Source: a bacterium (GTDB lineage: Bacteria; Bacteroidota; Ignavibacteria; UBA10030). Taken from it: a stretch of 32,000 nt of DNA. Both the position numbers and the translations under genes were made by a program. Shown here in pieces: positions 3,001 through 20,815 of the stretch. How positions within the stretch are numbered: the first letter of the stretch is position 1; every line of letters starts with the position of its first letter. Location: NCBI GenBank assembly GCA_043803945.1, contig JAZDJN010000062.1, positions 1 through 32,000 on the forward strand. The letters run 5' to 3'. Under the pieces are notes generated by a model. That model had not been told where the DNA came from. It worked only from the letters and a program-made list of their open reading frames with translations, and made no database searches.

Positions 3001-5476
3001 TTGTTTCAATTCCACTCTGGTTCGACTGAATCGAACAGTTACTTATTCAGGTGGTTCAATACTTATGAGTTTCAATTCCACTCTGGTTCGACTGAATCCA
3101 GCGACAGTAGAGGTTGCTGCTTCGTTAAGTCCGGTTTCAATTCCACTCTGGTTCGACTGAATCGCAAGGATCGAGATTAAAGTCACAAGAAACACAAATG
3201 TTTCAATTCCACTCTGGTTCGACTGAATCTTCTGCGGGTATTATTACAGCAGTGCAATTTGTAGGGTTTCAATTCCACTCTGGTTCGACTGAATCAGGTA
3301 ACGATTGACGATTCAGTAAAAGTGACGTATCGTTTCAATTCCACTCTGGTTCGACTGAATCATGTTCTCATAGTGCTGATACTGTTGCTCGTAACCGGTT
3401 TCAATTCCACTCTGGTTCGACTGAATCCGATGGCGATATAACTGAGACCTCATTCGATGCCTGGTTTCAATTCCACTCTGGTTCGACTGAATCGAGGATA
3501 GTAAACACATACAGTGGAATTGCTGACAAGTTTCAATTCCAATCTGGTTCGACTGAATCCCGTATAAGCCGTTACGACTAACTTATCTGAGCTTGGTTTC
3601 AATTCCACTCTGGTTCGACTGAATCGGGATTTTGTCCGATCGGTCAAGAGATTGTTTATACGTTTCAATTCCACTCTGGTTCGACTGAATCGGTTCAGAC
3701 TCGTGCGAAACATCTCACGAGTGCAATGTTTCAATTCCACTCTGGTTCGACTGAATCTACAGCATACACATTGCCCGTTGTAGATTCTGTCGCGTTTCAA
3801 TTCCACTCTGGTTCGACTGAATCGCTAAACTTCACAAGGTCATCTTTGCCTAACATCATGTTTCAATTCCACTCTGGTTCGACTGAATCATTGCTTCTTG
3901 ATATGGAGCACCGTTGACTGATACAGTTTCAATTCCACTCTGGTTCGACTGAATCACTTCGGTGTCGAAGGCGAGTATGCTGTTCTTGTTAGTTTCAATT
4001 CCACTCTGGTTCGACTGAATCCTGAGTGACGCAAGCATTGATTATCTCTGTGAGAAGTTTCAATTCCACTCTGGTTCGACTGAATCCATCCAATCAAATT
4101 TGCCTACGATATCTAATGCACAGTTTCAATTCCACTCTGGTTCGACTGAATCTTTGTATTGTTTTATCTTCAATAGATTGAGTCACCTGTTTCAATTCCA
4201 CTCTGGTTCGACTGAATCTCCGTTAATAGACCATCTCACATTAATTGTACAATCGTTTCAATTCCACTCTGGTTCGACTGAATCGGAGGATTTCGGTATA
4301 GATACTGTATCCCATATCGTGTTTCAATTCCACTCTGGTTCGACTGAATCCCGCCCCAAAGGCATTGACCGTCGTGGCCGTCGCAGTTTCAATTCCACTC
4401 TGGTTCGACTGAATCGTAGAACCGATAATCCAATTCGACAGATTTTGAGCTGGTTTCAATTCCACTCTGGTTCGACTGAATCAAACATTTGAGCATCCAG
4501 CCACCTTTCCCGAATTATGTTTCAATTCCACTCTGGTTCGACTGAATCTATATTCGTGATACTGCCTGTATTTCTTTGCTTCGTAGTTTCAATTCCACTC
4601 TGGTTCGACTGAATCTGATGCTCGCTGATAGTTCTGCGTTGACTACTTTCCGTTTCAATTCCACTCTGGTTCGACTGAATCTGTATCTCTTCTAAAGCAT
4701 TAGCCTGACCCTTTGCAGTTTCAATTCCACTCTGGTTCGACTGAATCTACTTTTTAACGAGAGGAATGTATTTTGTGGATGTTGTTTCAATTCCACTCTG
4801 GTTCGACTGAATCAGGGATTTCTGGGCAAGTTCAGAGTTGTCACAAGATGTTTCAATTCCACTCTGGTTCGACTGAATCATCTGTTCTATATACATTTGG
4901 AACGCCCGCTACAGGGTTTCAATTCCACTCTGGTTCGACTGAATCAATAAAAATTCAACTGAGCCTGACATCGTTAAGGTAGTTTCAATTCCACTCTGGT
5001 TCGACTGAATCCAAAAATGTGTTACTGAATCGAGGATACTTATTTACGTTTCAATTCCACTCTGGTTCGACTGAATCGCGCACAAGCCACAAGTGACATT
5101 TTTGTCGTCAAACCGTTTCAATTCCACTCTGGTTCGACTGAATCCCACACTCGTAACATTCGAGAGTAGAGAAATATCGAGGTTTCAATTCCACTCTGGT
5201 TCGACTGAATCTTGTATCTCTTCTAAAGCATTAGCCTGACCCTTTGCAGTTTCAATTCCACTCTGGTTCGACTGAATCAGTCAAGGATAAAGACCGTTGA
5301 GCCATCTATTCTCAGTTTCAATTCCACTCTGGTTCGACTGAATCGAGATCGGATCGTTTTATGGTGGGACACTTTGGCACGTTTCAATTCCACTCTGGTT
5401 CGACTGAATCACCAGCGTGTCAATCGAAACAACCTGCTTTGCAATCGTTTCAATTCCACTCTGGTTCGACTGAATC
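1..5476 (-). CRISPR. CRISPR array, 83 repeats of 30 nt with 35-37 nt spacers; continues beyond the left window edge
   Basis: The unit [A/G]TTTCAATTCCACTCTGGTTCGACTGAATC recurs 83 times (first full copy 31-60, last 5447-5476) with a 65-67 nt period, separated by spacers that are all different except one re-acquired pair. Positions 1-30 are a partial spacer. The reverse complement GATTCAGTCGAACCAGAGTGGAATTGAAAC ends in ATTGAAAC, the 8-nt crRNA 5' handle typical of Cas6-processed repeats. The cas operon and the canonical repeat form lie at the right end and variant repeats at the left end, so transcription is inferred on the minus strand. Confidence 0.99.
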
Positions 5477-5576
5477 CCGCTAAAAACCCCCTAAAAAATG
5501 CCGCGCTCAGCGGTTATATTACTACTCCAATCGTCATCCTATCATTATGCAAAAACACAGGGGGTCTGACGACTTA
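5477..5576 (-). promoter_or_regulatory. CRISPR leader between the cas2 stop and the first repeat
   Basis: These are 100 A/T-rich nt between the cas2 stop (5577) and the leader-proximal repeat. The region contains a 7-bp inverted repeat ACCCCCT (5486-5492) / AGGGGGT (5559-5565) and a small hairpin CCGC-gctca-GCGG (5501-5513). The polarity follows from the repeat-variant gradient and cas orientation. I could not recognise a promoter consensus with confidence. Confidence 0.6.
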
Positions 5577-5840
5577 TTACAACACGGTCTCGCTTCCTCC
5601 TTTTTCTGTTCCTATGATCTTCTTTTCCATGCGCGATTCGTCCTCAAATTGATAAATTATTACCGAGTCTTTCTCTAGATTGATCTTCTTCTTCAATCCT
5701 ATTTCCATCTCCTTATACTTTCCCTCAGTCAACCCCCCTTCGAATACACTGTTTTGCACCCAATTCAGATATCCGCGTAAATACTTCAGCACTTTTACGA
5801 CACGTTTTTCTTCAATATCATACACCACTATCACATACAT
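5577..5840 (-). CDS. cas2: CRISPR-associated endoribonuclease Cas2
   Basis: 87 aa. MYVIVVYDI...VQNSVFEG...DSVIIYQF matches the Cas2 ferredoxin-fold pattern. It is the last gene of the operon, directly upstream of the leader. Confidence 0.95.
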   Translation of the reverse strand: MYVIVVYDIEEKRVVKVLKYLRGYLNWVQNSVFEGGLTEGKYKEMEIGLKKKINLEKDSVIIYQFEDESRMEKKIIGTEKGGSETVL

Positions 5841-5862
5841 TATTTTATACCTCTTCGTCGAT

Positions 5863-5907
5863 GAAGGTCACCTTCGGCTGTGATCTATCTAGAGAAGGTG
5901 ACCTTCT
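5863..5907. repeat. REP-A doublet (inverted pair of palindromic units) in the cas1/cas2 intergenic gap
   Basis: GAAGGTCACCTTC (5863-5875) and its exact reverse complement GAAGGTGACCTTC (5895-5907) are separated by 19 nt. The pair fills the gap between the cas1 stop (5909) and the cas2 start (5840). Confidence 0.85.
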
Positions 5908-5908
5908 A

Positions 5909-7060
5909 TTACCACCACGCCCGAAATGCTTTGTACTCTTCGCCGGAAGTTATATGGCGTACTAACTTGTATGCTTCCAACCGAATCAAATGACGGTACG
6001 AAACATTTCTGCCTAATGCACGGTGCTTGATGGTCGTCTTCAACCGCTCGTCGTATTCCTGTACAATAATTTTCCTCCCCGACTCTTCCAAATAGCAGCA
6101 ATTCAATTCCGCCTTAAAATGCTTTTCCTGAATTTGCTTTGCATTCAACAACCGAAAGATCATTCGATCCGCCAACAATGGCTTAAATATTTCAGCCAAA
6201 TCTAAAGCCAATGAATAGCGTCGTTCACCAGGTCCGTGCAAATAACTTACTGTCGGTTCCAGGTGAGTATGATAGATTTCGCTCAACACCGTGGAATATA
6301 CCAAACCGTTAGCAAACGAAATGAGTGCATTGATCGCATTATCAGGTGGATGTTTCACCCTTTTATCCAGCGCAAATTCCTGCCCCACAATTTGACCCCA
6401 ACAATTATAATAACGGTCCCGTATATTACCTTCCACTCCCATCAATTCTTTGGTCGTATCAGTGCGTGCAATGCCATCCCGTAGGTTTTCTATCTCTTCA
6501 ATCTCCGCTGTAAAGTCTATCGACTTCTCTTCCGTTCCTTTCGATGGCTTCGAATAGTATTGTAGGTTTTTGACAATGTTGTATGATGCTGCATCTATGA
6601 ACTCCCGCGCAATCATCAACCGCCTGTGTGTATCAAGATACGCCCTCACCTGCTCCACGACGGTGAACCCCGACGGCAAGTAGTCACGCGGAATGAAGCT
6701 GCCTGCATAATGTCCGTAATAATTAAACAGGTGCAGCGGAATATGATGCTGAGACAGGAAATTGAAGAATTTGCTGTTGTAATCCATCTCACCGAAACAA
6801 TAGAACGCTTCAATATCCTGCACAGGCAATGGCTTACGTGTTACTCTTCCGGTGTCCGGGTTTTTTTCACTCTCTTCCGTAAAGCCGGCAAGAATCTCTT
6901 CATCAATACCGGGATCGATGTCAGTGGAAATATCAGATGGCGGATTTCGGATAGCAGATTCTTCTTGGGGGTTAGCAGGTTTTGACACAGGTTCAAAGAA
7001 GATGGTATTATCTTTTCTTCTCAACCTGCCGGATGACATTATGTAATAAGGTCGTTTCAT
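5909..7060 (-). CDS. cas1: CRISPR-associated integrase Cas1, with an extra acidic insertion in the N-terminal domain
   Basis: 383 aa. It has the N-terminal SGRLRRKDNTIFFE and LFNYYGHYAGSF motifs, and the helical catalytic domain motifs NALISFANGL and SYLHGPGERRYSLALDLAEIFKP typical of Cas1. About 40-50 extra residues (roughly aa 25-74) lie between the first beta strands. Confidence 0.96.
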   Translation of the reverse strand: MKRPYYIMSSGRLRRKDNTIFFEPVSKPANPQEESAIRNPPSDISTDIDPGIDEEILAGFTEESEKNPDTGRVTRKPLPVQDIEAFYCFGEMDYNSKFFNFLSQHHIPLHLFNYYGHYAGSFIPRDYLPSGFTVVEQVRAYLDTHRRLMIAREFIDAASYNIVKNLQYYSKPSKGTEEKSIDFTAEIEEIENLRDGIARTDTTKELMGVEGNIRDRYYNCWGQIVGQEFALDKRVKHPPDNAINALISFANGLVYSTVLSEIYHTHLEPTVSYLHGPGERRYSLALDLAEIFKPLLADRMIFRLLNAKQIQEKHFKAELNCCYLEESGRKIIVQEYDERLKTTIKHRALGRNVSYRHLIRLEAYKLVRHITSGEEYKAFRAWW

Positions 7061-7066
7061 TTAAAT

Positions 7067-7164
7067 CGGATAGCAGATATCAAATAACAGATGACAAAAA
7101 ACAGATGACAGATGACGGATGACAAATAACAAACGACAAATGACAAATAAATAATAGCAAATTG
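7067..7164. repeat. Tandem array of 14 in-register degenerate heptamers (consensus CARATRA)
   Basis: CGGATAG CAGATAT CAAATAA CAGATGA CAAAAAA CAGATGA CAGATGA CGGATGA CAAATAA CAAACGA CAAATGA CAAATAA ATAATAG CAAATTG, with no register slip. CGGATAGCAGA (7067-7077) is the exact reverse complement of TCTGCTATCCG (7605-7615). Confidence 0.9.
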
Positions 7165-7173
7165 AATTCATAA

Positions 7174-7539
7174 TCATATAGAACGGCTGAGAAATGTTAT
7201 AAATCCGGCTGTTTGATTTATGATCGAGACACTGAGAGTGAATGCCTCCTCAAATTCGGATTGTGAGATATATTGCAGATCGAGTGCAACATAGAGTTGA
7301 CTTCTCAATTCTCCGACAGAACCTTTTGCATGATACAGGAAAGCGATGAACTCCTTTTTCGTGTGTCGTTCGTAACCCTCGGCGATATTAGACATCACGG
7401 AAACCGCTGATCGCTGCATCTGATCTTTCAGACCGTAATCGGAAGACAATTTTCCTTTTGCCGTTAATCTATAGATTATCGATGTAAGCTTCCGTGCATC
7501 CTGCCAGACAGGCATATCTTCAAATCGTTTAAACTTCAT
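7174..7539 (-). CDS. Four-helix-bundle protein (23S rRNA intervening-sequence protein family, PF05635/TIGR02436-like)
   Basis: 121 aa. WQDARKL...RSAVSVMSNIAEGYER...EFIAFLYHAKGSVGELRSQL is the signature of the IVS-encoded four-helix-bundle family. It lies between cas4 and cas1 on the same strand. Confidence 0.88.
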   Translation of the reverse strand: MKFKRFEDMPVWQDARKLTSIIYRLTAKGKLSSDYGLKDQMQRSAVSVMSNIAEGYERHTKKEFIAFLYHAKGSVGELRSQLYVALDLQYISQSEFEEAFTLSVSIINQTAGFITFLSRSI

Positions 7540-7570
7540 TTTGTTCCTTTTTATTATCAGTCTTTCGCAA

Positions 7571-7689
7571 TCTGTTATTCGCTATTAGCATTCTGCTTTT
7601 GTTTTCTGCTATCCGCTATTTGCTATCTGTCATTTTACTTATACGCTATCTGTCATATGCAATCCGTTATTCGTTATCTGCCATTTTAT
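7571..7689. repeat. Degenerate heptamer array (YYGYYAT), inverted relative to 7067-7164
   Basis: The words CTGCTAT CCGCTAT TTGCTAT CTGTCAT ... CTGTCAT ... CCGTTAT TCGTTAT CTGCCAT run with one 2-nt register slip. They are the reverse complement of the ATRRCRR words in the left array. Together the two arrays bracket the four-helix-bundle gene. Confidence 0.85.
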
Positions 7690-8202
7690 TTATACCCAGC
7701 AAAGCTCAAAATAACTGCACATCTTACAAAAGCGTCTCGATTTCTTTTCTGGTGCAGATGCGGACTCGACAACTTCTTCGATCTTTTTCAGCACTTCGAT
7801 TATTTCTTCTTCCGTTTGTTCGTTTAACTCTACAGATACCTTTTGTCTTAACTTCGGATAATCGAGTTCTCCTTTCAATCCCGACACTCCTTTTTGTTTG
7901 AGATACCATAAGTAATACAACACCTGCCACCGATGCGCTTCTTCAAGGCTGTCGGACTTCTTCACCTCGTGTAACACACCGTTCTTACTATCGATCCAAT
8001 CAATCACAATTGCGTTGTCAATCTCGATCTGTTTTTCTTTCCGTGCATAGCTTGATTCATCTATGAGCTTACCCAAGAGAACGGTATCAGACGTATGCTC
8101 CATAACCAAACCACGCGAGAATAGCCACAGTTTACGCTTGCACACAAAATAATAATTTAAATGTGTGCCGGATATATTGTGCCTGAAGGTTTCCTTCATC
8201 AT
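7690..8202 (-). CDS. cas4: CRISPR-associated exonuclease Cas4
   Basis: 170 aa. An N-terminal Cys in YYFVCKRKLW plus a C-terminal C-x2-C-x5-C (CKMCSYFELC) gives the Cas4 four-Cys cluster pattern. A RecB-like core is present (IDWID ... LHEVKKS). The first codons are encoded by a REP-A arm. Confidence 0.92.
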   Translation of the reverse strand: MMKETFRHNISGTHLNYYFVCKRKLWLFSRGLVMEHTSDTVLLGKLIDESSYARKEKQIEIDNAIVIDWIDSKNGVLHEVKKSDSLEEAHRWQVLYYLWYLKQKGVSGLKGELDYPKLRQKVSVELNEQTEEEIIEVLKKIEEVVESASAPEKKSRRFCKMCSYFELCWV

Positions 8203-8230
8203 AGGTTTAGTCAGAAAGAAGGAAACCTTC
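8185..8230. repeat. REP-A doublet spanning the RAYT stop / cas4 start junction
   Basis: GAAGGTTTCCTTC (8185-8197) and its reverse complement GAAGGAAACCTTC (8218-8230) are separated by 20 nt. The left arm encodes cas4 residues KETF. The right arm encodes the RAYT C-terminus (VEGFLL). Confidence 0.85.
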
Positions 8231-8830
8231 TACATAAGGTAACACTCTTTTCCAGTAATCTTTCTCTGCCCGCTCATCTTTCAACACCTGCTGCACAAAT
8301 TCTATATAATCCTCGCCCAAATCAGCAAAAGGTTTCCTTCCGCTTGTTAAAGGCTTCCTTCTGTTAGGAATAACCTTAGTTGAAGGAAGCCTTTTACCCA
8401 GGTACTCTACAAAGTTCGAAAACTTCCACTCCTCCGGTTCCCGCACTAATCCCGCCCTCACCGGATTCAAATGAATATAACACGCCACGTCCTGCACGGC
8501 ATCTTCCGGAACAGACTTATAACGAAATGGACCCTGAAACAAATGCCCGATATGCCCATACTTTAAATTGTATCGCTTTGCGGCAGATGTCGCCAACGCA
8601 CCCATCATATCCGACAAACAACCGCCCTGTTTCTGCAGAGCAAGGATGTGGTAATGATTCGGCATCAACGCGTACGCTGGCACAAGGACAGAATATTTAA
8701 CGGCAAGTGATTTCATCTTCCTAATAAACGCTTCATAATCCGATGCATCGGCAAAGATACGCTCTTTATCGTTCCCACGGTTATATACATGGTAAAACCG
8801 ATCATCTTCTATTTTTTCTTCTCTGTTCAT
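8207..8830 (-). CDS. REP-associated tyrosine transposase (RAYT) / IS200-like Y1 HUH transposase
   Basis: 207 aa. It has the HUH motif in MPNHYHIL, and the YIHLNPVRAGLV and EEWKFSNF segments typical of the PF01797 branch that contains RAYTs. REP-A doublets flank it on both sides. Its stop is 4 nt from the cas4 start, on the same strand. Confidence 0.85.
   Translation of the reverse strand: MNREEKIEDDRFYHVYNRGNDKERIFADASDYEAFIRKMKSLAVKYSVLVPAYALMPNHYHILALQKQGGCLSDMMGALATSAAKRYNLKYGHIGHLFQGPFRYKSVPEDAVQDVACYIHLNPVRAGLVREPEEWKFSNFVEYLGKRLPSTKVIPNRRKPLTSGRKPFADLGEDYIEFVQQVLKDERAEKDYWKRVLPYVEGFLLSD
8349..8394. repeat. REP-A-like doublet inside the 3' part of the RAYT ORF
   Basis: AAAGGCTTCCTTC (8349-8361) and its exact reverse complement GAAGGAAGCCTTT (8382-8394) are separated by 20 nt. 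It has the same arm length, spacing and GAAGG/CCTTC core as the intergenic doublets. Confidence 0.7.
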
Positions 8831-8852
8831 ATCTTTTATAGAAGGTGTAGCG

Positions 8853-8897
8853 GAAGGTTACCTTCTGCTTATTCGTGCTTAGTTGAAGGTAACCTTC
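8853..8897. repeat. REP-A doublet between cas7 and the RAYT gene
   Basis: GAAGGTTACCTTC (8853-8865) and GAAGGTAACCTTC (8885-8897) are separated by 19 nt. An additional partial arm AGAAGGTG lies at 8840-8847. Confidence 0.85.
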
Positions 8898-8927
8898 AAC
8901 CGAGGGACGAGAAATTCTTTAGCTATG

Positions 8928-9986
8928 TTATACTTGTCTTTCATAGTCGTATGCCAAAAGCATTTCCTTCAATTTGTTCTCTGCGTCATCCAATGCATTT
9001 GCCGTTCCATGCACACCTTGGATATATCCGTCACAAGGAAGAGCTATGAACAAATCCGTTCCAACTGTATCGTCAATAATAGGAATTGCATGTGGTTTCT
9101 CTGTTTCCTCTGAAAGTTTAGCACGTATTGCGCTTGCTACTTTGTTTGCGTTGTCGCTGATAGCAATAGCAAGCGTTTCCATTAGACTAAACGTGCGTGA
9201 TTGATTACTGGTAATTCTCCAATTAAGAATGCCTTTGGCAAGAGCATTAATAATTTCATTTCTTTTCTTTTTGGGACATATCAGACAACTACCGAAAGCA
9301 TTCTTAGATTCTTTCCAACCATTATCTCGGAGTTCTTTTCCAATATCATCCGTTATTTCACGTTCGTGTTTATTCAATGACACAGAAAAGAGCGTACGTA
9401 TATCTATTGCAATGTCGTACACAAATAGTCCTGCAGCTCTTGTGTTATCTTGAATAAAATTCCTGCGTGTAAGAGATATTTTTTTGTCTTCAAGAAATTT
9501 ATTGATCTCTACTTCTGACAGTTCTTTTCCGTTTGCATCACGCACTTTTACGGGATGAATATCGGGATTGCTGCTGCGATCAAATGTTAAATTCTCTCTT
9601 GCGACACTGCATAAAAGAGGATGTAATGCACGCATAGCGGAGATAGATAATGGGCTTCGTCTCTTAACTGGTGTTTCTCCAGCTTGAGCTCTCATCCAAC
9701 CTCCAAGCAATTGGTCTGTATATTTAGGATCACAAGGTGACCAAGGTTCTCCCTCACCCAAGCCGCCTTTTTCTTTTATTATTTTATTGAAAGTTATCGG
9801 TGCTTGTTGCTCTCCTAACAATTCCAAGATAGAATCTAATGCTGAACGCTTAACTTGTTGACCACTTGAATAAGGAACATACTTCCCAAATTGACTATCA
9901 TAGTATGTCTTTTGTCCTTCTTGGACACAAAACACTGTATGTTCGGCATGTCGAAGCCCGCGAAGATAAATAAATGGTGATCCCAT
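8928..9986 (-). CDS. cas7: Cas7 backbone subunit (Cst2/DevR/Csh2-like RAMP)
   Basis: 352 aa. VPYSSGQQVKRSALDSI resembles the conserved (V/I)SxQxxKRxxR segment of type I Cas7 proteins. It sits directly downstream of the large subunit. An AAGGAG Shine-Dalgarno lies about 7 nt upstream of the ATG. Confidence 0.8.
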   Translation of the reverse strand: MGSPFIYLRGLRHAEHTVFCVQEGQKTYYDSQFGKYVPYSSGQQVKRSALDSILELLGEQQAPITFNKIIKEKGGLGEGEPWSPCDPKYTDQLLGGWMRAQAGETPVKRRSPLSISAMRALHPLLCSVARENLTFDRSSNPDIHPVKVRDANGKELSEVEINKFLEDKKISLTRRNFIQDNTRAAGLFVYDIAIDIRTLFSVSLNKHEREITDDIGKELRDNGWKESKNAFGSCLICPKKKRNEIINALAKGILNWRITSNQSRTFSLMETLAIAISDNANKVASAIRAKLSEETEKPHAIPIIDDTVGTDLFIALPCDGYIQGVHGTANALDDAENKLKEMLLAYDYERQV

Positions 9987-10019
9987 GTTGGTTCTCCTTA
10001 TTTAAAGTTGTTTTTACTA

Positions 10020-11366
10020 TCAATTGGGTAATGCATATTTGAAACGCATCAGCGTTACAAAAAGCGGCACATTATCGACTGCAATATTCTCCATTAACTC
10101 ATGAACAAGAGTATTACATACTTCCCCCATCGTTGTTGGCTCTTCTTCCACAAGTTGAGTAAGCCGATCAATCAACTCTTTGCGATTTCGGGAAGACAAT
10201 AGCTCTTTTATTTCGTTATCACGCTTCACAGTTCCCTTCCTTCCTCCTTTTTCATACTTTCGAAACGCTTGAGCGGCTTTTTCTGCTAAACCAAGAAGAT
10301 TTTTGTTATTTAACATAGCGATCACCCATGTAATGTAAATTGAATAGTTAATTTTAGATTTTTCATCATCCTTAAGTTTTGGCATCTCATTTGAACTGGA
10401 TCTACCAGGCATATATTTCCACAAATCTTTTGGTTCTATAGCTTTTAAACCAATTGTTCCTTGTTCGCATGCACGTGAAAAAGGATATTGAGTTTCATAC
10501 AAAGCAACCATTTGCTTTATGCCCACAGAATCACTCTTTTTAAATATTTTATCATAGAATTCCCAAAACTTATTTACCTCCGGTAAATTAAGATTAATAA
10601 AACCAAGGGTTACGTATTTCTGTTTATCATATATATATCTCGAACTAAAAATAGTAACGTTCTCTTTCGGAAATATGCTCGACAATAAAAACAACATCTT
10701 AATCCAGCTCTGCTGTTTTAGAGCATAGTTAGCTTTTCGTTTTTCGCTGGTTTCTTTTTCTACATATTCATCCAAGAGAAATTTCTTAACTATTTTGTCT
10801 TTATTAAAAGTATGGTCAAGCCAAACACTATTCCATAGATCAATCTCATTTGGTTTTAAATCCAGCACTTTTGAGTTCAAATGTTTTCGATATTCAGACC
10901 AACCTGAATAAATCGTCCAAAGCAACTTTTCATTGTTCATATACCATACTTGTTTCCCCTCTACTTCTATCCCAAAGCCAGCCCCAATCCATGAAGAATA
11001 TATACTTTCTTTGTCCATAGGAAGAGTTAAAGATGATACTTGTCCTGAAGTATCAAAAAGGTCATTAGCAGCCGGGAACCCTATTGCAAAGCTACTATCT
11101 GGAACATCTTCTTCGATTTTTTTATTTAATTTTTCAAGTTTACGTTTTTGCTCATCTTCAAATGTTTTTATTCCCTTTCTTTCTTTAGCAGGAAGTTTCT
11201 GAACAAAAGGAGAGTTAACAATCCATTTAAAATACTTCTTATGGTTATAGAATTCTTCAAAAACTTCTTTTTTAAAGAATAATTCTGCAGATAATCTTTT
11301 ATTTTTCTTTTTATTATATATTTCTAAAAATCGCTGCCCAATAAACGATATGTACATAGCTTTCAC
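10020..11366 (-). CDS. cas8: Candidate Cascade large subunit (Cas8-like), highly divergent
   Basis: 448 aa, Lys-rich and more AT-rich than its neighbours, with no motif I can name. The call rests on position (between cas3 and cas7), size, and a helical C-terminal roughly 100 aa. The track start at 11366 is GTG, 3 nt after the cas3 stop. The ATG at 11357, preceded by AAGGTGA, is a likelier start. Confidence 0.5.
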   Translation of the reverse strand: MKAMYISFIGQRFLEIYNKKKNKRLSAELFFKKEVFEEFYNHKKYFKWIVNSPFVQKLPAKERKGIKTFEDEQKRKLEKLNKKIEEDVPDSSFAIGFPAANDLFDTSGQVSSLTLPMDKESIYSSWIGAGFGIEVEGKQVWYMNNEKLLWTIYSGWSEYRKHLNSKVLDLKPNEIDLWNSVWLDHTFNKDKIVKKFLLDEYVEKETSEKRKANYALKQQSWIKMLFLLSSIFPKENVTIFSSRYIYDKQKYVTLGFINLNLPEVNKFWEFYDKIFKKSDSVGIKQMVALYETQYPFSRACEQGTIGLKAIEPKDLWKYMPGRSSSNEMPKLKDDEKSKINYSIYITWVIAMLNNKNLLGLAEKAAQAFRKYEKGGRKGTVKRDNEIKELLSSRNRKELIDRLTQLVEEEPTTMGEVCNTLVHELMENIAVDNVPLFVTLMRFKYALPN

Positions 11367-11369
11367 CTT

Positions 11370-13505
11370 TTAGATTACAGTATCAATTTCTTTCCATTCT
11401 AAACCTACCGACGGACTATACAATTCGTCATGGACAATAATTGGGGACGTTCCATATTTTGAATATCCATAATTTGTGAACTTACGGAACCTTGCCGTTC
11501 GTGGAATCGGTATTTCCAGACTGATTCGTTGTTCGCTGTTTCCCTTTTCATATTGCTCTAAATCTGAATATCGAATCGCTGTTGCTGATTCAATGTTCAA
11601 TGCTTCCATTAGAACAGAAGAGGGGAAATGGCAAAGTTCCGTTAAAAGAAACTCATCCCTTTCCCATACTAAATGAGTATTAATGGAAATCTCTTTGAGA
11701 GTTGGAAACACTTCATCAATTATCTTTTGCAAATCACGCTCGTGTAATACTTCGTTATCCGGTAACTGCGCAAAACTTCGTTCTAGCAACTCTTGTGCAT
11801 AGGGCAAACATGCTTTGCTCTCATCAGGCGGTTCGATAACATATACTGGCTTTAATATCCTGTTCCGAACACTCTCCTCGGTTCTACGCCTGTTGATGCG
11901 TCCGAACCGTTGAATGAGACTGTCAAACGGAGCACACTCGGTTATCATCACATCAAAGCTAATGTCCAAGCTTACTTCCACTACTTGCGTTGAAACGACA
12001 ATGCAGGCTTTTGAAGAGCAATCGAATTTTTCCCGAAGTTCTTTTTCTAATTCTGCCCTATCCTGCCGTCGGAATCGGCTATGAAGAAGCATTTGCGGCA
12101 TATCGGGGAAAAGTTCACAGCATTCCTTGAAGCGTTTCTGTGCGGCATCTACTCTATTGCACACGATGAGGACTTTTTTGTTCTCTTGTAGAGCTTGTAG
12201 AATAATGCTCCGTGTTTCATCAAATGAAGAAATCTTATGAACAATGTGTCTATCGAACGTAACAAGCGTATTTTGAGGCAATGACACGGTGTATGTTTGT
12301 TTCTTCCCTCCAAGAAGTTTTAATATTTTCTTTTGCAACACCAACGGCATTGTTGCACTGCCGACATGAACTCGGCAACGCAGTTTTAACAACGCTTTGA
12401 TGATTTCTAAAACCATAGACTGCGCGATCTCGGAGTACGAATGAATTTCATCCAGGATGACATCATTCCCCATAATATCAACAGCAAGCGCTTCGAAACC
12501 ACGCGTTCCACAAATCAATGATGCCAATTGATGAGGTGTTAAGACTTTAATGGCGGCACCGACTTTATCTTGTAAAACTTTTTCTTCATACGATTCGCTT
12601 CCTTTCACTACCAATCTTGACGATGCATGAAGCACTCGTATTTCAGCTTGATTCGGAAGCTGCTGCCGAAATCGTTCGTACATAGCATTGATGGACGCTT
12701 GAAAAGGTAATGTATAAAAGACCCTGCTACTGCAACGGCGCATAAGAAAATCTGTTTTCCCCGATCCCGTTGGTGCAACAACAAGAGTATGCGGTATCTT
12801 ATCGTCGGCAGAAAGAAGGGATAAAGGAAATAGAGTATTCGACCGATTATCAAATGCTGAGAGATCGGGAGTTTGGAATATCGTTGAAATACGGACATTT
12901 GTTTTTTCGTTCAATGCAGAGGCAAAATGGTCTGCCCCAACAAGCACGCCTTTCCATTTCGACCAACCAAGTGATTTTTTTGAGCAATATTCAATAGTAT
13001 ACCGATATGCCCTCAATGCTTCATCTTTCGAAATGCTTCGCGTAGAAATACCAACATCGGACAGAATAGCAAGAGCTACAGACGACCATTCTTCCCAAGG
13101 ATCAACATGCCGTTCAAATATCTCATCGCTTCCTTCTATATTTTCTAAATCCAAGATTCCCTGTTCACGCGCATCCTGGCGAATGGAACGATGATGAGCA
13201 ACGATCATATCAACAAGTGCATTCCAATCTTTTTGCGGGAATAATGGAAGGAATAAAAGTGATGCAATTTCATGCCGGAAAGTAATGCCAAAATTATCGT
13301 TCCTATTATTTTTCAACTTTCGCTGGAAATCCGGATGCGACTTGCCAACATCATGCAAAAGCCCTCCGAGCCGTGCAAGCCTTTTATCCAATCCTGCCGA
13401 TTCGGCAACTCTTTCTGCTACAGAAGCAACATGACGTAAATGATCGGTTAAAAGTGTTCCACCATTGTTCACACTCTTAGCGTATATGTCTTGAAGCGGA
13501 TTCAT
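11370..13505 (-). CDS. cas3: Cas3 HD nuclease-helicase fusion
   Basis: 711 aa. The N-terminal HD domain has HLRHV, LLHDVGK, FRHEIAS and VAHHR. The SF2 helicase has motif I APTGSGKTD, motif II DEIHSY and motif VI-like QRFGRINRR. Confidence 0.97.
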   Translation of the reverse strand: MNPLQDIYAKSVNNGGTLLTDHLRHVASVAERVAESAGLDKRLARLGGLLHDVGKSHPDFQRKLKNNRNDNFGITFRHEIASLLFLPLFPQKDWNALVDMIVAHHRSIRQDAREQGILDLENIEGSDEIFERHVDPWEEWSSVALAILSDVGISTRSISKDEALRAYRYTIEYCSKKSLGWSKWKGVLVGADHFASALNEKTNVRISTIFQTPDLSAFDNRSNTLFPLSLLSADDKIPHTLVVAPTGSGKTDFLMRRCSSRVFYTLPFQASINAMYERFRQQLPNQAEIRVLHASSRLVVKGSESYEEKVLQDKVGAAIKVLTPHQLASLICGTRGFEALAVDIMGNDVILDEIHSYSEIAQSMVLEIIKALLKLRCRVHVGSATMPLVLQKKILKLLGGKKQTYTVSLPQNTLVTFDRHIVHKISSFDETRSIILQALQENKKVLIVCNRVDAAQKRFKECCELFPDMPQMLLHSRFRRQDRAELEKELREKFDCSSKACIVVSTQVVEVSLDISFDVMITECAPFDSLIQRFGRINRRRTEESVRNRILKPVYVIEPPDESKACLPYAQELLERSFAQLPDNEVLHERDLQKIIDEVFPTLKEISINTHLVWERDEFLLTELCHFPSSVLMEALNIESATAIRYSDLEQYEKGNSEQRISLEIPIPRTARFRKFTNYGYSKYGTSPIIVHDELYSPSVGLEWKEIDTVI

Positions 13506-14125
13506 CGAGTAGATATCTGTGATGCTAATGGGTTATTACCAACAATATGAAGCCATCCATACATCGGTTTGCTGTTATCGAAACGATTAAAGCCGACAAT
13601 GAAGGATTGCTTAGTTTTTCCAAAGCGTAATTCAAAGCCGTTAAAACCATTATCCGGTTCGTCAAATTTTTCTTCGTTTATTTTTAAGATGTGTTCGTTT
13701 GTCGGAAATTCGGCAGGCAACAGAACATCTTCATTGCGGCACAAACAAATGTGCTGCTGTATTGCCCGTTCGGCAAATTCAAGTTTGGATAAAGCTATGT
13801 AAAGAATCGGATTCAGCAGAACACCACGTATTAAAATTGACCGTGGCCTATCTATAACAACAATATTCTCTTTCTTTTTAACGGTAATATTTATACCACG
13901 CGGCTGTGTTTGTTCTTGTTGTTTTGATAGTCCGATATAAGTCAAACGATGTCGCACAATTCTTGGATCGTATTTTTTTTGTTCCAGCAATTCTGGGAAC
14001 AGTTTCTTTTCTATTCCTTCAATTATCGAAGGTGTTAGAAAGTTTTGGCTATAGGTTTCACTATCCCTCACAGCTGTCCAAGGTTTAATGAAACCGAATG
14101 GTCCTGAATACTTCACGATATACAT
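13502..14125 (-). CDS. cas5: Cas5 RAMP subunit
   Basis: 207 aa. The N-terminal GPFGFIKPW...TYSQNFLTPSIIEGI matches the Cas5 signature (F..P....sY..PtpSai.G). Its stop overlaps the cas3 start (ATGA). An AAGGAGA Shine-Dalgarno lies upstream. Confidence 0.8.
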   Translation of the reverse strand: MYIVKYSGPFGFIKPWTAVRDSETYSQNFLTPSIIEGIEKKLFPELLEQKKYDPRIVRHRLTYIGLSKQQEQTQPRGINITVKKKENIVVIDRPRSILIRGVLLNPILYIALSKLEFAERAIQQHICLCRNEDVLLPAEFPTNEHILKINEEKFDEPDNGFNGFELRFGKTKQSFIVGFNRFDNSKPMYGWLHIVGNNPLASQISTR

Positions 14126-14149
14126 TTTTCGTCTCCTTCTGGCATGGGC

Positions 14150-14195
14150 GAAGGTTACCTTCCACTATGTTAAGCTATGCGAGAAGGTAACCTTC
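14150..14195. repeat. REP-A doublet between cas6 and cas5
   Basis: GAAGGTTACCTTC (14150-14162) and GAAGGTAACCTTC (14183-14195) are separated by 20 nt. The arms are identical to those at 8853-8897, in the same relative order. Confidence 0.85.
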
Positions 14196-14203
14196 TGGCA
14201 AAT

Positions 14204-14860
14204 TTAGCAGAGCGCTCCAAAACCGCTTCCTGTTGAATGTCCGACTCCAACTTCCCAAGCAAATGCGACCGCCTCTGGTGTTCCTTCTATCATTACCGGG
14301 CAAACACTTGCTCTATTTTGAATACCTTTAATTGTGACAAGCCGTGTTTTACACTTTTCGTATGTCCTGTCAAAGAATACTTTTATCCCTTTGTTAACTA
14401 TTCCAGCTTTTTCCAATTTTGTTTTGAGCGTTGCCGTCAACACATCATCAACTCCAGAATCAGAAAACAGTAGATGCTTTATTCCTTGACCATCATATTT
14501 TTTTACAAGAACAGGTGTTGCGGTTAAAAATCTTTGATGTTCGCTGAATTTTGGTGTACCTACCATTTGTACATCGGTAATCCTCATACCGCAACAAACG
14601 TTTGGTTCCGAAAGAAGACCACTCATAACTTTTTTTGCCAGAGCCTCATTCCAGCAACTGATGAACCACTTTGCTCCTTTAGGAAAATTCAGCATGTCTT
14701 TTTCTTTTTTCCCTCCCGATAACCAGCTTAGAGAATAAAGACTGATGTCGTCATGTATTTCATTCGGACCAAGCCATTTATGAAATGCACCGATCAAAAA
14801 ATGCTGGTACTCAAAAGGTACAGGTTCAATATTCGGTGTTAAATTAAAATAGAGTCGCAT
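14204..14860 (-). CDS. cas6: Cas6 pre-crRNA endoribonuclease
   Basis: 218 aa. The C-terminal glycine-rich loop GVGHSTGSGFGAL is typical of Cas6. It is the first gene of the operon, with an AGGAGAA Shine-Dalgarno upstream. Confidence 0.85.
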   Translation of the reverse strand: MRLYFNLTPNIEPVPFEYQHFLIGAFHKWLGPNEIHDDISLYSLSWLSGGKKEKDMLNFPKGAKWFISCWNEALAKKVMSGLLSEPNVCCGMRITDVQMVGTPKFSEHQRFLTATPVLVKKYDGQGIKHLLFSDSGVDDVLTATLKTKLEKAGIVNKGIKVFFDRTYEKCKTRLVTIKGIQNRASVCPVMIEGTPEAVAFAWEVGVGHSTGSGFGALC

Positions 14861-15533
14861 CTTTGTTTTCTCCTAGTATCTCGTTATGAGCCAAGTTGTA
14901 AGCATTATCGTCTCTCGAATAATTTTCATCGCCAGATCATATACATCATTGAAATCCAAACTACTAATCAATAAAAAACCACTCTCAATACCTACCGGCA
15001 TATCAAGTGGTCATTTATTTGTGCATTTAATCACGCGTCCTCCCGAATGAAGAAGTATTCGGTTCTGTCGGCATCGAAATGTATGTAATTTTCGATCTAT
15101 CTTCAACGCTTTAACCATACCACACTTTTGTCACTCTTCTGTGACTCTTTTTGATAGATTTGCCACTTTGTTCCCAAAGTAAGTCGGTAAAAATTTACCC
15201 AATAATTATTCCGACACCACCCTTTCGACACCGCTTTACATCGAAGTAGAAATATCCACGAACCTCTATCTACCGATGATTCTAACGAGGCTCAAGGGCG
15301 TTATCGGTAAACAACCTACCATCGGACCAGGCGGTCACCATGAGTATACCAGCTATTGTATTCTGGAAACAATGGATGGCGAGATGGAAGGGACATATAT
15401 TATGCAACGCACCGAAGACAACCTCTTTACTGTGAGAATCCCAAAATTCCTCCTCAGAGCACACGCCAACTGATTGACAAGCTTTTGCTCTCCCTCTTCA
15501 CCTGCCTTCGCACTTCGTGCTCCGGCAGGCAGG

Positions 15534-19783: not shown

Positions 19784-19834
19784 GAGAAGTCTGTCTTCTC
19801 CCAAAGATCAATCTCTATTAGAAGACAGACTTCT
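19784..19834. repeat. REP-B doublet downstream of the OPT transporter gene
   Basis: GAGAAGTCTGTCTTCTC (19784-19800) and AGAAGACAGACTTCT (19820-19834) are inverted copies separated by 19 nt. Confidence 0.85.
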
Positions 19835-19919
19835 TATCATTGTCTTGCCCCATCTTTTCCACGGGGGTCCCTGACAGCCTGGCAAAAAGGAAGTCGGAAG
19901 GGTTTCTAATTTCACAAGG

Positions 19920-19998
19920 GAGTCAGAAACCACTTCCTGACTCTCTCAGGAATTATGAGGGATTATTTTAACAAGGGGGTCAGGAACCATTTCCTGAC
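19920..19998. repeat. Two tandem hairpin units upstream of RAYT-2
   Basis: GAGTCAGAAA-CCAC-TTCCTGACTC (19920-19943; 9 of 10 bp) and GTCAGGAA-CCAT-TTCCTGAC (19979-19998; 8 of 8 bp). Each is preceded by ACAAGGG(A/G)G, so this is a direct repeat of a hairpin unit of about 30 nt. Confidence 0.8.
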
Positions 19999-20043
19999 TC
20001 ATAGACAAGAATCGTTACTCATCACCTCAGGGAGGAGGCAGTT

Positions 20044-20595
20044 ATGGGTTTACGAGGAAGGCAACTAATCTCAAGCACCGACCATCTTTTTTTCGTTACC
20101 ACTACCGTAGTAAATTCCATTCGCATCTTTCAAGAGGATCGTTTCTGCTCTCTCCTGATCCAGAATATCAAGCACTACCAAAAACGGTATCAATTCGAGA
20201 TTTATGGATATGTTATTATGCCTTCTCATTTTCATTGGATCGTTGAAGTTGATCATCGATATGGCACTATCTCAGGAATTATGAGGGATTTGAAAAAATA
20301 TTCCGCGTGGGATATTATGGAGGCAGTAGAGAATGAACAGCGGTTAGACCTTCTCGAACAATTTCGTAATGCAGCAGCGGGATACAAAAACCAGCATCGA
20401 AAATTCTGGATGGATAGATTTGATGATGAAGTGATACACAATGAAGGGATGCTCCGTACCAAATTGGAGTATATTCATTACAATCCTGTAAAGGCGGGTC
20501 TTGTATTAAATCCTGAAGACTATCGCTATTCGAGTACAAGGAATTATATCTGCAATGATCATAGTATTCTTCAGGTGAAAACGGATTGGTGGTAA
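20044..20595 (+). CDS. Second REP-associated tyrosine transposase (RAYT) / IS200-like Y1 HUH transposase
   Basis: 183 aa. It has the HUH motif in MPSHFHWIV and the motifs YIHYNPVKAGLV and PEDYRYSS. It is flanked by REP-B doublets and by a 16-nt direct repeat GTCCCTGACAGCCTGG (19867-19882 and 20635-20650). Confidence 0.85.
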   Translation: MGLRGRQLISSTDHLFFVTTTVVNSIRIFQEDRFCSLLIQNIKHYQKRYQFEIYGYVIMPSHFHWIVEVDHRYGTISGIMRDLKKYSAWDIMEAVENEQRLDLLEQFRNAAAGYKNQHRKFWMDRFDDEVIHNEGMLRTKLEYIHYNPVKAGLVLNPEDYRYSSTRNYICNDHSILQVKTDWW

Positions 20596-20621
20596 CAGAA
20601 ATTTTAGTTTAAAAGAATCTA

Positions 20622-20645
20622 CTGTCAGGGAGTGGTCCCTGACAG
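20622..20645. repeat. Perfect 10-bp hairpin just downstream of RAYT-2
   Basis: CTGTCAGGGA-gtgg-TCCCTGACAG. Its 3' arm is part of the 16-nt direct repeat also found at 19867-19882. Confidence 0.8.
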
Positions 20646-20675
20646 CCTGGTTGGAGGTTGGAAGATTCCGACTGC

Positions 20676-20725
20676 AGAAGTCTGTCTTCTTCAAAGGATT
20701 AACCTCTGTGAGAAGACAGACCTCT
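20676..20725. repeat. REP-B doublet
   Basis: AGAAGTCTGTCTTCT (20676-20690) and AGAAGACAGACCTCT (20711-20725) are separated by 20 nt. It is preceded by ACTGCAG, as is the next copy. Confidence 0.85.
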
Positions 20726-20765
20726 AATAAAAAACCTGGCAGCCTGCTTGGTAGGGTCTAACTGC

Positions 20766-20815
20766 AGAAGTTTGTCTTCTTCCAATGGTCAATCGCTGAT
20801 AGAAGACAGACTTCT
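20766..20815. repeat. REP-B doublet overlapping the stop codon of the TrmH-family gene
   Basis: AGAAGTTTGTCTTCT (20766-20780) and AGAAGACAGACTTCT (20801-20815) are separated by 20 nt. With 20676-20725 it forms a tandem cluster with a unit of about 90 bp (BIME-like). Confidence 0.85.

Follow-up and report, generated by a model that had tools for sequence, protein, structure and literature searches.

The window analysed here is a stretch of 32,000 nt from contig JAZDJN010000062.1 (assembly GCA_043803945.1; Bacteroidota, Ignavibacteria). It carries a type I-B CRISPR-Cas operon in which a foreign cassette lies between cas7 and cas4. The cassette consists of a gene for a REP-associated tyrosine transposase (RAYT), co-oriented with the cas genes and bracketed by two hairpins built of inverted repetitive extragenic palindromic (REP) sequences. 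At this locus, comparison with orthologous operons makes plain insertion a well supported explanation. At the level of sequence, the insertion is shown to have replaced the 5' end of cas4, a gene that now takes its start codon and its first seven codons from cassette DNA.

A scan anchored on Cas1, with one genome per GTDB species, gave 29 loci, nearly all from metagenome-assembled genomes of Ignavibacteriota or 'Bacteroidota'. In the closest operon (L014; Cas7 95%, Cas3 91%, Cas4 90% and Cas1 91% identical), the gene order is that of the window, and cas7 is followed by cas4 after ~30 nt, without RAYT, REP or IVP gene (the last is described below). The next one (L013, Cas7 90%) has no RAYT either and keeps a single REP in the gap; the cas7-cas4 spacing in these two operons is 30-60 nt. 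Likewise, cas7 is directly followed by cas4 in L016, L017 and L031. A four-way DNA alignment delineates a clean block of ~740 nt present in the window and in locus L001 only, with homology resuming at the codon for Cas4 I10. The sequence-only reading of this DNA had offered, as its conservative option, an insertion tolerated inside the cas operon, and the RAYT-free orthologs support it. It had also raised a functional coupling of the RAYT with adaptation; for this RAYT, coupling is not supported, as there are RAYT-free orthologs and as relatives of the gene lie at unrelated loci. This pair of observations, named in advance as deciding against coupling, is nevertheless too simple a test: several RAYT lineages recur before cas4, one of them co-diverging with Cas4, and coupling may still exist as a wider phenomenon beyond this RAYT.

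The junctions of the window (cas7 or its remnant, REPIN, RAYT, REPIN, cas4; REPINs are defined below) are shared by L001 and L002, which come from other samples (JGI 3300031551, JGI 3300031337). In these loci, Cas4 and Cas1 are 95% identical to those of the window and the RAYT only 78%. The cas3 gene of L001 is only 25% identical to that of the window and is directly followed by what is left of the cas7 C-terminus, 44 residues immediately before the cassette. The arrangement of a foreign cas3, a 44-66-residue remnant of the cas7 C-terminus and a RAYT is observed in L001 (2332-2463), with a RAYT of the window's class, hereafter named class A, and in L122 (4727-4924), with a RAYT of another class, named class B. 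Therefore, the adaptation module including the RAYT has recombined onto another effector module, with a breakpoint in cas7.

The identity of the inserted gene is well established. The 207-aa HUH protein that had been noticed between cas7 and cas4 on the cas strand is encoded by the open reading frame (ORF) 8207-8830 (minus strand) and is indeed of the Y1/HUH type. It contains the motifs PNHYHIL (HUH) and CYIHLNPVRAGL (catalytic tyrosine). Residues H59, H61, N122 and P123 are the same in all of 57 homologs, and conservation of Y118 among them is 90% or higher. The Pfam Y1_Tnp model matches with 33.2 bits (cutoff 23). The NCBIfam REP_Tyr_transpos model covers residues 8-138 with 63.1 bits (E = 2.5e-17); the score is below the 80-bit equivalog cutoff, which shows a divergent subclass rather than a different fold. 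An AlphaFold model built on the 57 homologs has a mean predicted local distance difference test (pLDDT) score of 89.3, and residues 148-165 form its sole low-confidence loop (pLDDT <50). Foldseek ranked first, for this model, the structure 4ER8 of E. coli TnpA_REP, a REP-associated tyrosine transposase with a REP hairpin bound (E = 1.4e-8, template modelling score 0.70, root-mean-square deviation 3.1); IS200/IS605 TnpA structures came next, with E = 1e-6 or weaker. Searching the PDB with the sequence alone gave 4ER8 as the sole match, a weak one (E = 0.07). The 2182 database relatives are often annotated 'REP element-mobilizing transposase RayT', and the motif set NHYH, FQ, YIHLNP resembles that of TnpA_Y1 subclass 2.1. 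Overall, motifs, profile, fold and flanking REPINs confirm that the gene is a RAYT, and its enzyme activity is predicted.

The REP unit of the window, GAAGG-NNN-CCTTC, is present in 8 exact copies versus 0.07 expected, and none of 100 shuffles reached 8. All eight copies pair as four inverted doublets with starts 31-33 nt apart (5863/5894, 8185/8218, 8853/8885 and 14150/14183). Such inverted doublets correspond to the REPINs described by Bertels and Rainey (PMC3116915). The central triplets vary between doublets and are always complementary within one (TCA/TGA, TTT/AAA and, twice, TTA/TAA). Each doublet makes a perfect 13-bp stem with an unconserved loop of 18-20 nt, and the predicted folds range from -19 to -23 kcal/mol (z -2.3 to -4.5 versus shuffles). 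The two doublets already known to bound the RAYT, at 8185-8230 and 8853-8897, proved to be REPINs of this perfect type. The left one begins 30 nt past the cas7 stop and is also found 5' of the RAYT start in L001, L003 and L034. More generally, the GAAGG-N3-CCTTC core flanks RAYT relatives at 78%, 65%, 40% and 37% identity.

The other two REPINs lie in the cas1-cas2 and cas6-cas5 gaps and had been overlooked, as had a degenerate REPIN located in frame inside the RAYT ORF. The corresponding gaps in L014 and L013 measure 2-23 nt (cas6-cas5 ~15 nt) and are REP-free; the cas1-cas2 gap of L001, whose Cas1 and Cas2 are 95% and 97% identical to those of the window, has 45 nt and is also REP-free. By this comparison, the REPINs in the cas1-cas2 and cas6-cas5 gaps are insertions too. 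The degenerate REPIN encodes RAYT residues ~146-168, which include the low-confidence loop of the model, and has a fold energy of -21.8 kcal/mol; this insertion is absent from the 65%-identical RAYT of L003 and shorter in that of L001. Another in-frame REPIN, AAAGGTTTCCTTC...GAAGGAAACCTTT, is located within cas1 of L008 (4716-4761), where it makes a 10-residue insertion (KGFL...EGNL) relative to the Cas1 of the window. A resemblance of the REP to the CRISPR repeat was considered and rejected, comparison by eye showing no similarity of the repeat and the REP core.

A second RAYT, unrelated to the first and missed in the sequence-only reading, is encoded further along the window (ORF 20044-20595, plus strand). 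Its NCBIfam REP_Tyr_transpos score of 121.7 bits is above the cutoff. The region (19785-20815) has its own REPIN family, AGAAGTCTGTCTTCT...AGAAGACAGACTTCT, at 19785-19834, 20676-20725 and 20766-20815, with additional GGGAGTCAG-type hairpins at 19907-20000. Hence, the 32-kb window contains two RAYT systems.

At the right end of the cassette, the RAYT stop codon (8207-8209) and the cas4 ATG (8200-8202) are separated by 4 nt, a spacing that the coordinates bear out. The right REPIN is coding on both sides, as had been seen: its left arm encodes the RAYT C-terminus (VEGFLL), the stop codon of the RAYT and the first ATG of cas4 fall in its loop, and its right arm encodes Cas4 residues 3-6 (KETF in MMKETFR). 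In the cas4 frame, the sole canonical starts between the upstream stop and the conserved ISGTH are two ATGs, both in the REPIN, and homology with L014 and L013 begins only at the codon for I10. In addition, the cassette end TGATGAAGGAAACCTTCAG also closes the cassette of L003, a non-cas locus in which a RAYT of 65% identity lies between ROK and LptD genes; a variant of this end is found in L034. Since the only canonical cas4 starts are in the REPIN and the same cassette end occurs at a non-cas locus, the cas4 start and first seven codons are cassette DNA. In both cas-linked RAYT classes, the 3' REP of the RAYT adjoins the point where the conserved core of Cas4 begins, and in many cases its translation gives Cas4 an N-terminal extension. 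A scan of 5400-15400 for promoters and terminators gave counts no higher than the shuffled expectation and is silent on transcription units.

The RAYT-free ortholog L014 presents a peculiarity of its own at this place (9483-9516): between the in-frame upstream stop and the ITGTH of cas4 there is no ATG, GTG or TTG, only CTG or ATA. Initiation of Cas4 in operons of this family may require coupling to the gene upstream.

Outside this operon, class A is rarely found near cas genes. A RAYT-anchored scan of metagenomes gave 80 loci, in which cas genes were sought within 8 kb. Only one was cas-linked, on the same contig as L001, and the other 79 had no cas gene within this distance; in the sense used in neighbourhood surveys (for instance bioRxiv 10.1101/270033), where most members of a family adjoin cas genes or arrays, class A is therefore not a CRISPR-linked accessory family. 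In L003 and L034, the whole unit (left REPIN, RAYT, right REPIN overlapping the stop) stands at non-cas loci. The ratio of nonsynonymous to synonymous substitution rates (dN/dS) between the window and L001 is 0.31 for RAYT residues 1-143, the catalytic domain, and 0.57 for the C-terminus, versus 0.087 for cas4, 0.046 for cas1 and 0.071 for the IVP gene. No near-identical second copy of the RAYT was found in the window or in the fetched loci, the closest being 78% identical. Scans of viral contigs for carriage by phages or mobile elements returned only two distant class-B relatives and no relative of the window Cas4.

We consider that the cassette is probably a selfish or hitchhiking REPIN-RAYT-REPIN element held in place by translational coupling. 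Its insertion into the short spacer between cas7b and cas4 would date from a recent ancestor of this Ignavibacteriales-like lineage. This spacer, among the few real intergenic gaps of the operon, would be a preferred and permissive landing site, which could be why different RAYT lineages stand before cas4 in related loci. The RAYT would have no promoter of its own and would be read from the cas operon transcript. In the right REPIN, the cas4 ATG would sit in the hairpin loop, with codons 3-7 hidden in the stem. A ribosome finishing the RAYT ORF would melt the left arm and free the cas4 start, so that Cas4 translation would be coupled to that of the RAYT. Precise loss of the cassette would silence cas4, because its native start is gone. 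Coupling and captured start together would thus act as a ratchet that makes clean loss costly, with no need for a biochemical partnership. Such a ratchet would explain the long retention of RAYT-cas4 pairs elsewhere and their joint movement. As for the RAYT's own activity, it would be to nick and rejoin single-stranded REP hairpins, serving local REPIN spread or maintenance and not spacer acquisition. The REPINs in neighbouring gaps, in frame in the window RAYT and in cas1 of L008 fit this proposed activity.

Several points weigh against this explanation. The landing-site preference is asserted, and no conserved target sequence was seen at the left junctions of the window, L001, L003, L034 and L015. 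Translational coupling and co-transcription are deduced from sequence alone. The adjacency of a RAYT and cas4 is, in addition, recurrent. Y1 genes were sought in the 29 Cas1-anchored loci with a hidden Markov model of RAYT homologs and with Pfam. Nine loci have them (L004, L007, L008, L009, L010, L015 with two, L019, L022 with a frameshifted one, and L024), all co-oriented with cas, and 7 of these 10 genes are located 0-180 nt upstream of the conserved Cas4 core. A RAYT-type gene directly precedes cas4 in 7 of the 26 species-level loci in which the region is visible (naive binomial P 1e-6; P 4e-4 to 3e-3 if 5-6 presumed independent events are counted). At least three unrelated RAYT lineages with different REP types occupy this slot. 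One, in L008 and L015, is 37-40% identical to the window RAYT and has the same GAAGG-N3-CCTTC REPs. Another is an IS200-like gene, in L015. The third is class B, with the motifs RRHLPH...IMPNHVH...FWQxESYDH...YVLNNPVKAG and with GTAG-footed palindromes beside the gene and in frame inside it. Seven database relatives of class B were sampled, chosen only for their long contigs; the sample is biased, the profile having been built from cas-linked members. Five of the seven belong to cas loci; in four cases the gene overlaps or adjoins cas4 (L113-115, L116-117, L121, L125-126). These loci include some in which cas4 is followed by type III genes and others with the cas3-cas8-cas7 module of the window. 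The distances between class-B RAYTs correlate with those between the Cas4 proteins (Mantel r = 0.87, P = 0.0005, eight pairs) and are of similar size; class-B RAYTs are therefore as constrained as Cas4. Finally, the catalytic HUH and tyrosine motifs are intact in nearly all cas-linked copies.

Some class-B loci have a particular organization. In L004 (7765-10001), the RAYT is flanked by two copies of cas4. In L116 (4554-6642), two class-B RAYT genes and a DUF1841 gene lie between cas7 and cas4. P0268, a class-B relative of 374 aa, carries a long tandem array of the 12-residue unit VDGTGVPSDxTQ where class-B RAYTs have in-frame REP insertions.

Alternatively, adaptation modules with Cas4 might, in Ignavibacteriota and their relatives, include RAYT-type Y1/HUH enzymes as genuine accessory parts, which we regard as unlikely though not far-fetched. 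The enzyme would bind and nick single-stranded or hairpin DNA, such as rolling-circle, conjugative or single-stranded phage intermediates. It would then hand 3'-overhang substrates to Cas4-Cas1-Cas2 or resolve integration intermediates, and the window RAYT would be a replacement in the same functional slot. The co-oriented and often overlapping adjacency in 7 of 26 species-level loci and in 4 of 7 sampled class-B relatives, the three lineages in one slot, the co-divergence with Cas4 at similar distances and the conserved catalytic motifs all speak for such a role. So does the fact that the class-B/cas4 pair is kept beside different effector modules and that, in L001 and L122, a foreign cas3 has come to precede the Y1 gene. 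On the other hand, the closest ortholog, L014, works without a RAYT gene, and L012 and L013 also lack one; in the Cas4 tree, these three are the exceptions in the window's clade, which is mostly RAYT-linked. The slot turns over: in addition to these absences, the gene has decayed by frameshift in L022, and L129 contains a second, broken copy of its 3' half. A query that joined a class-B RAYT to Cas4 retrieved no intact Y1-Cas4 fusion. P0241, the only protein spanning both, was rejected as a fusion, because the gene caller had read through into cas4 from the 3' half of a RAYT that is duplicated and broken. Class A is overwhelmingly non-cas, and 2 of the 7 class-B relatives are at non-cas loci, their branches in a neighbour-joining tree falling within those of the cas-linked members. 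Constraint on the window RAYT is weaker than on the cas genes, other small genes of selfish appearance occupy these gaps too, and the RAYT genes keep their own REPs like ordinary RAYTs. We know of no adaptation step that needs an HUH nuclease. In a more specific form of this idea, Cas4 would have, in the adaptation modules of Ignavibacteriota/Bacteroidota type I (and hybrid I/III) systems, a partner that has so far escaped notice, namely RAYT-type nucleases recruited again and again. They would be inherited with cas4 as a two-gene unit and would process single-stranded or hairpin DNA during spacer capture, one lineage having replaced another in the window. We hold this form to be doubtful.

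It is also conceivable, if quite improbable, that the REPIN hairpins are the useful part and the RAYT their keeper. The hairpins would then serve as 3'-end protectors or translation dampers after cas6, cas7 and cas1, keeping expression of the effector module high and that of the adaptation module low, and the RAYT would be retained in cis to maintain them. REP elements in E. coli stabilise upstream mRNA and reduce translation when close to a stop codon. All four exact REPINs of the 32-kb window are in cas operon gaps, 2, 8 and 30 nt past the cas1, cas6 and cas7 stops and, for one, across the RAYT stop; none is found in 17 kb of non-cas sequence, and the folds are stable. However, L014 and most orthologous operons do without these hairpins, class-B loci do not have REPs spread over several operon gaps, and local hopping near the RAYT accounts for the pattern with no benefit to the host. 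To our knowledge, REPINs cluster near their RAYT in all known systems. Roles of REPs are summarised in PMC3733652 and PMC3479197.

An assembly or binning artefact, that is, a chimeric contig joining a RAYT locus to a cas operon, is practically ruled out because the independent assemblies L001 and L002, from other samples, share the junctions and differ by ordinary point substitutions, and reading frames are continuous across both junctions. What could suggest such an artefact is that metagenome assemblies are the source of the window and of every locus compared, and that REP repeats can cause misjoins.

Compared with characterised systems, the window RAYT is closest to E. coli TnpA_REP (4ER8; REPtron/BIME, for bacterial interspersed mosaic element) and to Pseudomonas REPIN-RAYT (PMC3116915, PMC3337134, PMC3479197). 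It shares with them the Y1/HUH fold, the HUH motif and the Y-x-x-x-N-P tyrosine, and it likewise stands between inverted REP doublets whose folding gives long hairpins, with more copies nearby. Unlike in these systems, the REP unit has only 13 nt, no 5' GTAG foot is present and the loops are unconserved. Moreover, one REPIN is in frame within the RAYT and another spans the RAYT stop and the start of its neighbour, and the gene is inside a cas operon and co-oriented with it, not in an extragenic REP cluster of its own. In the TnpA_Y1 classification (Quentin et al. 2018, PMC6006769; Bertels et al. 2017, PMC5581495), the window RAYT shares NH[YF]H, FQ, Y[IV]HLNP and a C-terminal extension with subclass 2.1 (RAYT group 1), and the cas4-linked class B shares NHVH, WQ and Y.xNNP with subclass 2.4 (RAYT group 4), both assignments being made by motifs only. 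The GTAG-footed palindromes beside and inside class-B genes match subclass 2.4 TnpA_REP as described (PMC6006769). CRISPR or cas neighbours are not mentioned in PMC6006769 or PMC5581495. Our literature searches found no paper linking RAYTs or Y1 transposases to Cas4, CRISPR or adaptation, in agreement with the earlier statement that no such link had been described.

Two other kinds of system deserve comparison. IS200/IS605 elements (IS608, ISDra2) have the same transposase fold and are the next-best Foldseek matches. As in these elements, hairpins are located at both ends of the gene, the junctions show no target duplication and the unit occurs at different loci. Unlike in IS200/IS605, there is no tnpB or iscB partner and no tnpB-like ORF in the cassette. 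Its ends are perfect inverted doublets instead of distinct imperfect left-end and right-end hairpins, its relatives are 65-78% identical and from other genomes with no near-identical copies, and the flanking repeats also occur solo. Classification of the cassette as IS200/IS605 was rejected on the three counts of near-identical copies, distinct end hairpins and tnpB. As regards established adaptation add-ons (Cas4-Cas1 fusions, Cas1 fused to reverse transcriptase, DnaQ-Cas2, Csn2), the window RAYT is likewise a nuclease-type gene next to cas4-cas1-cas2, co-oriented and tightly spaced, and the class-B lineage is, like them, inherited together with cas4. Unlike them, the RAYT is not fused, is absent from the nearest orthologs, belongs to a family mainly found away from cas and has no published link to adaptation that we could find.

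RAYTs are regarded as single-copy, vertically inherited, domesticated transposases. Here, a RAYT cassette is found in a horizontally mobile defence operon, giving a neighbour gene its start codon, with REPINs spreading to gaps and coding frames. Two findings are new: a REPIN has captured the start codon of cas4, and RAYT and cas4 are recurrently adjacent, and in part co-diverge, in Ignavibacteriota and relatives. If the pairing is only hitchhiking, it offers a concrete route for RAYT and REPIN spread and a clear case of a selfish element that is hard to lose owing to translational coupling. If it is functional, it would mean a new enzyme class in CRISPR adaptation and a first cellular role for RAYTs. 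The pairing is easy to test either way, since there are natural loci that have the RAYT and others that lack it whose proteins are 90-95% identical.

Features of the cas operon and of the inserted cassette, with their positions in the window
Feature	Position	Strand	Basis or remarks
CRISPR array	1 to ~5476	minus	83 repeats; leader between array and cas2
cas2	5577-5840	minus	97% identical to an ORF called CRISPR_Cas2 by Pfam
REPIN in cas1-cas2 gap	5863-5906	minus	begins 2 nt past cas1 stop
cas1	5909-7060	minus	Pfam
23S_rRNA_IVP/four-helix-bundle gene, 121 aa	7174-7539	minus	PF05635 E = 1e-34; TIGR02436
cas4, intact, 170 aa	7690-8202	minus	Pfam Cas_Cas4 E = 2.5e-57
Right REPIN of cassette	8185-8230	minus	hairpin -19 to -22.6 kcal/mol, z = -3.6; end sequence ATGATGAAGGAAACCTTCAG
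RAYT gene, class A, 207 aa	8207-8830	minus	Pfam Y1_Tnp, fold, flanking REPINs
Degenerate REPIN, in frame inside RAYT ORF	8328-8394	minus	arms 8349-8361 and 8382-8394; extra arm 8328-8340
Left REPIN of cassette, cas7-RAYT gap	8853-8897	minus	arms GAAGGTTACCTTC, GAAGGTAACCTTC; 13-bp stem, 19-nt loop; z = -4.5
cas7 (Cas7b), last gene of effector module, upstream flank of insertion	8928-9986	minus	PADLOC E = 7e-167
cas8 (Cas8b)	10020-11366	minus	PADLOC E = 8e-119
cas3 (Cas3b)	11370-13505	minus	PADLOC E = 5e-295
cas5 (Cas5 I-B)	13502-14125	minus	PADLOC E = 5e-77
REPIN in cas6-cas5 gap	14150-14195	minus	begins 8 nt past cas6 stop
cas6 (Cas6b)	14204-14860	minus	PADLOC E = 1e-86

The RAYT is not the only small gene lodged in these adaptation modules. 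The gaps around the adaptation genes contain an IVP gene in seven loci, a PDDEXK_3 gene in eight, an MNT-type nucleotidyltransferase gene in four and a TumE gene in one. Between cas4 and cas1, an IVP gene is also found in L001, L007, L008, L010, L011 and L122, but not in L014 or L013. The cas spans account for 56% of the sequence and contain 26 of the 28 RAYT, IVP and PDDEXK_3 cassettes (P = 3e-5); thus, these operons collect small passenger genes in general. In the window, the IVP gene (Avd-like; region 7063-7684) is flanked by A/T-rich inverted and direct repeats, and purifying selection on it is strong (dN/dS 0.07 for the window versus L001). In L023, it is found in the cas1-cas2 gap instead. 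PDDEXK_3 genes (PF13366) stand between adaptation genes, in the cas4-cas1 or cas1-cas2 gaps, in L012, L016, L018, L020, L021, L022 and L024. Of the MNT-type genes (L006, L020, L021, L030), that of L006 occupies the cas4-cas1 gap and the other three lie upstream of cas4, some with a small unannotated ORF downstream. The TumE toxin gene is upstream of cas4 in L027.

The host operon itself is of type I-B, according to the PADLOC calls Cas7b, Cas8b, Cas5 (I-B), Cas6b and Cas3b. PADLOC and Pfam together find the set complete in the window: Cas6b, Cas5b, Cas3, Cas8b and Cas7b, with Cas4-Cas1-Cas2 and an array. Comparison of the spacers with the RAYT, the REPs, the rest of the window and the fetched loci gave only chance matches of 16-17 nt, with no sign of self-targeting. 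A 36-37-nt spacer with its repeat is present twice in the array (4682-4747 and 5213-5278), with 100% identity over 66 nt and eight units apart. Cas1 proteins of this clade carry an acidic low-complexity N-terminal insertion (residues ~20-70; window 6850-7000) whose length differs between loci: it is 8 residues shorter in L008, and the alignment with L013 breaks there.

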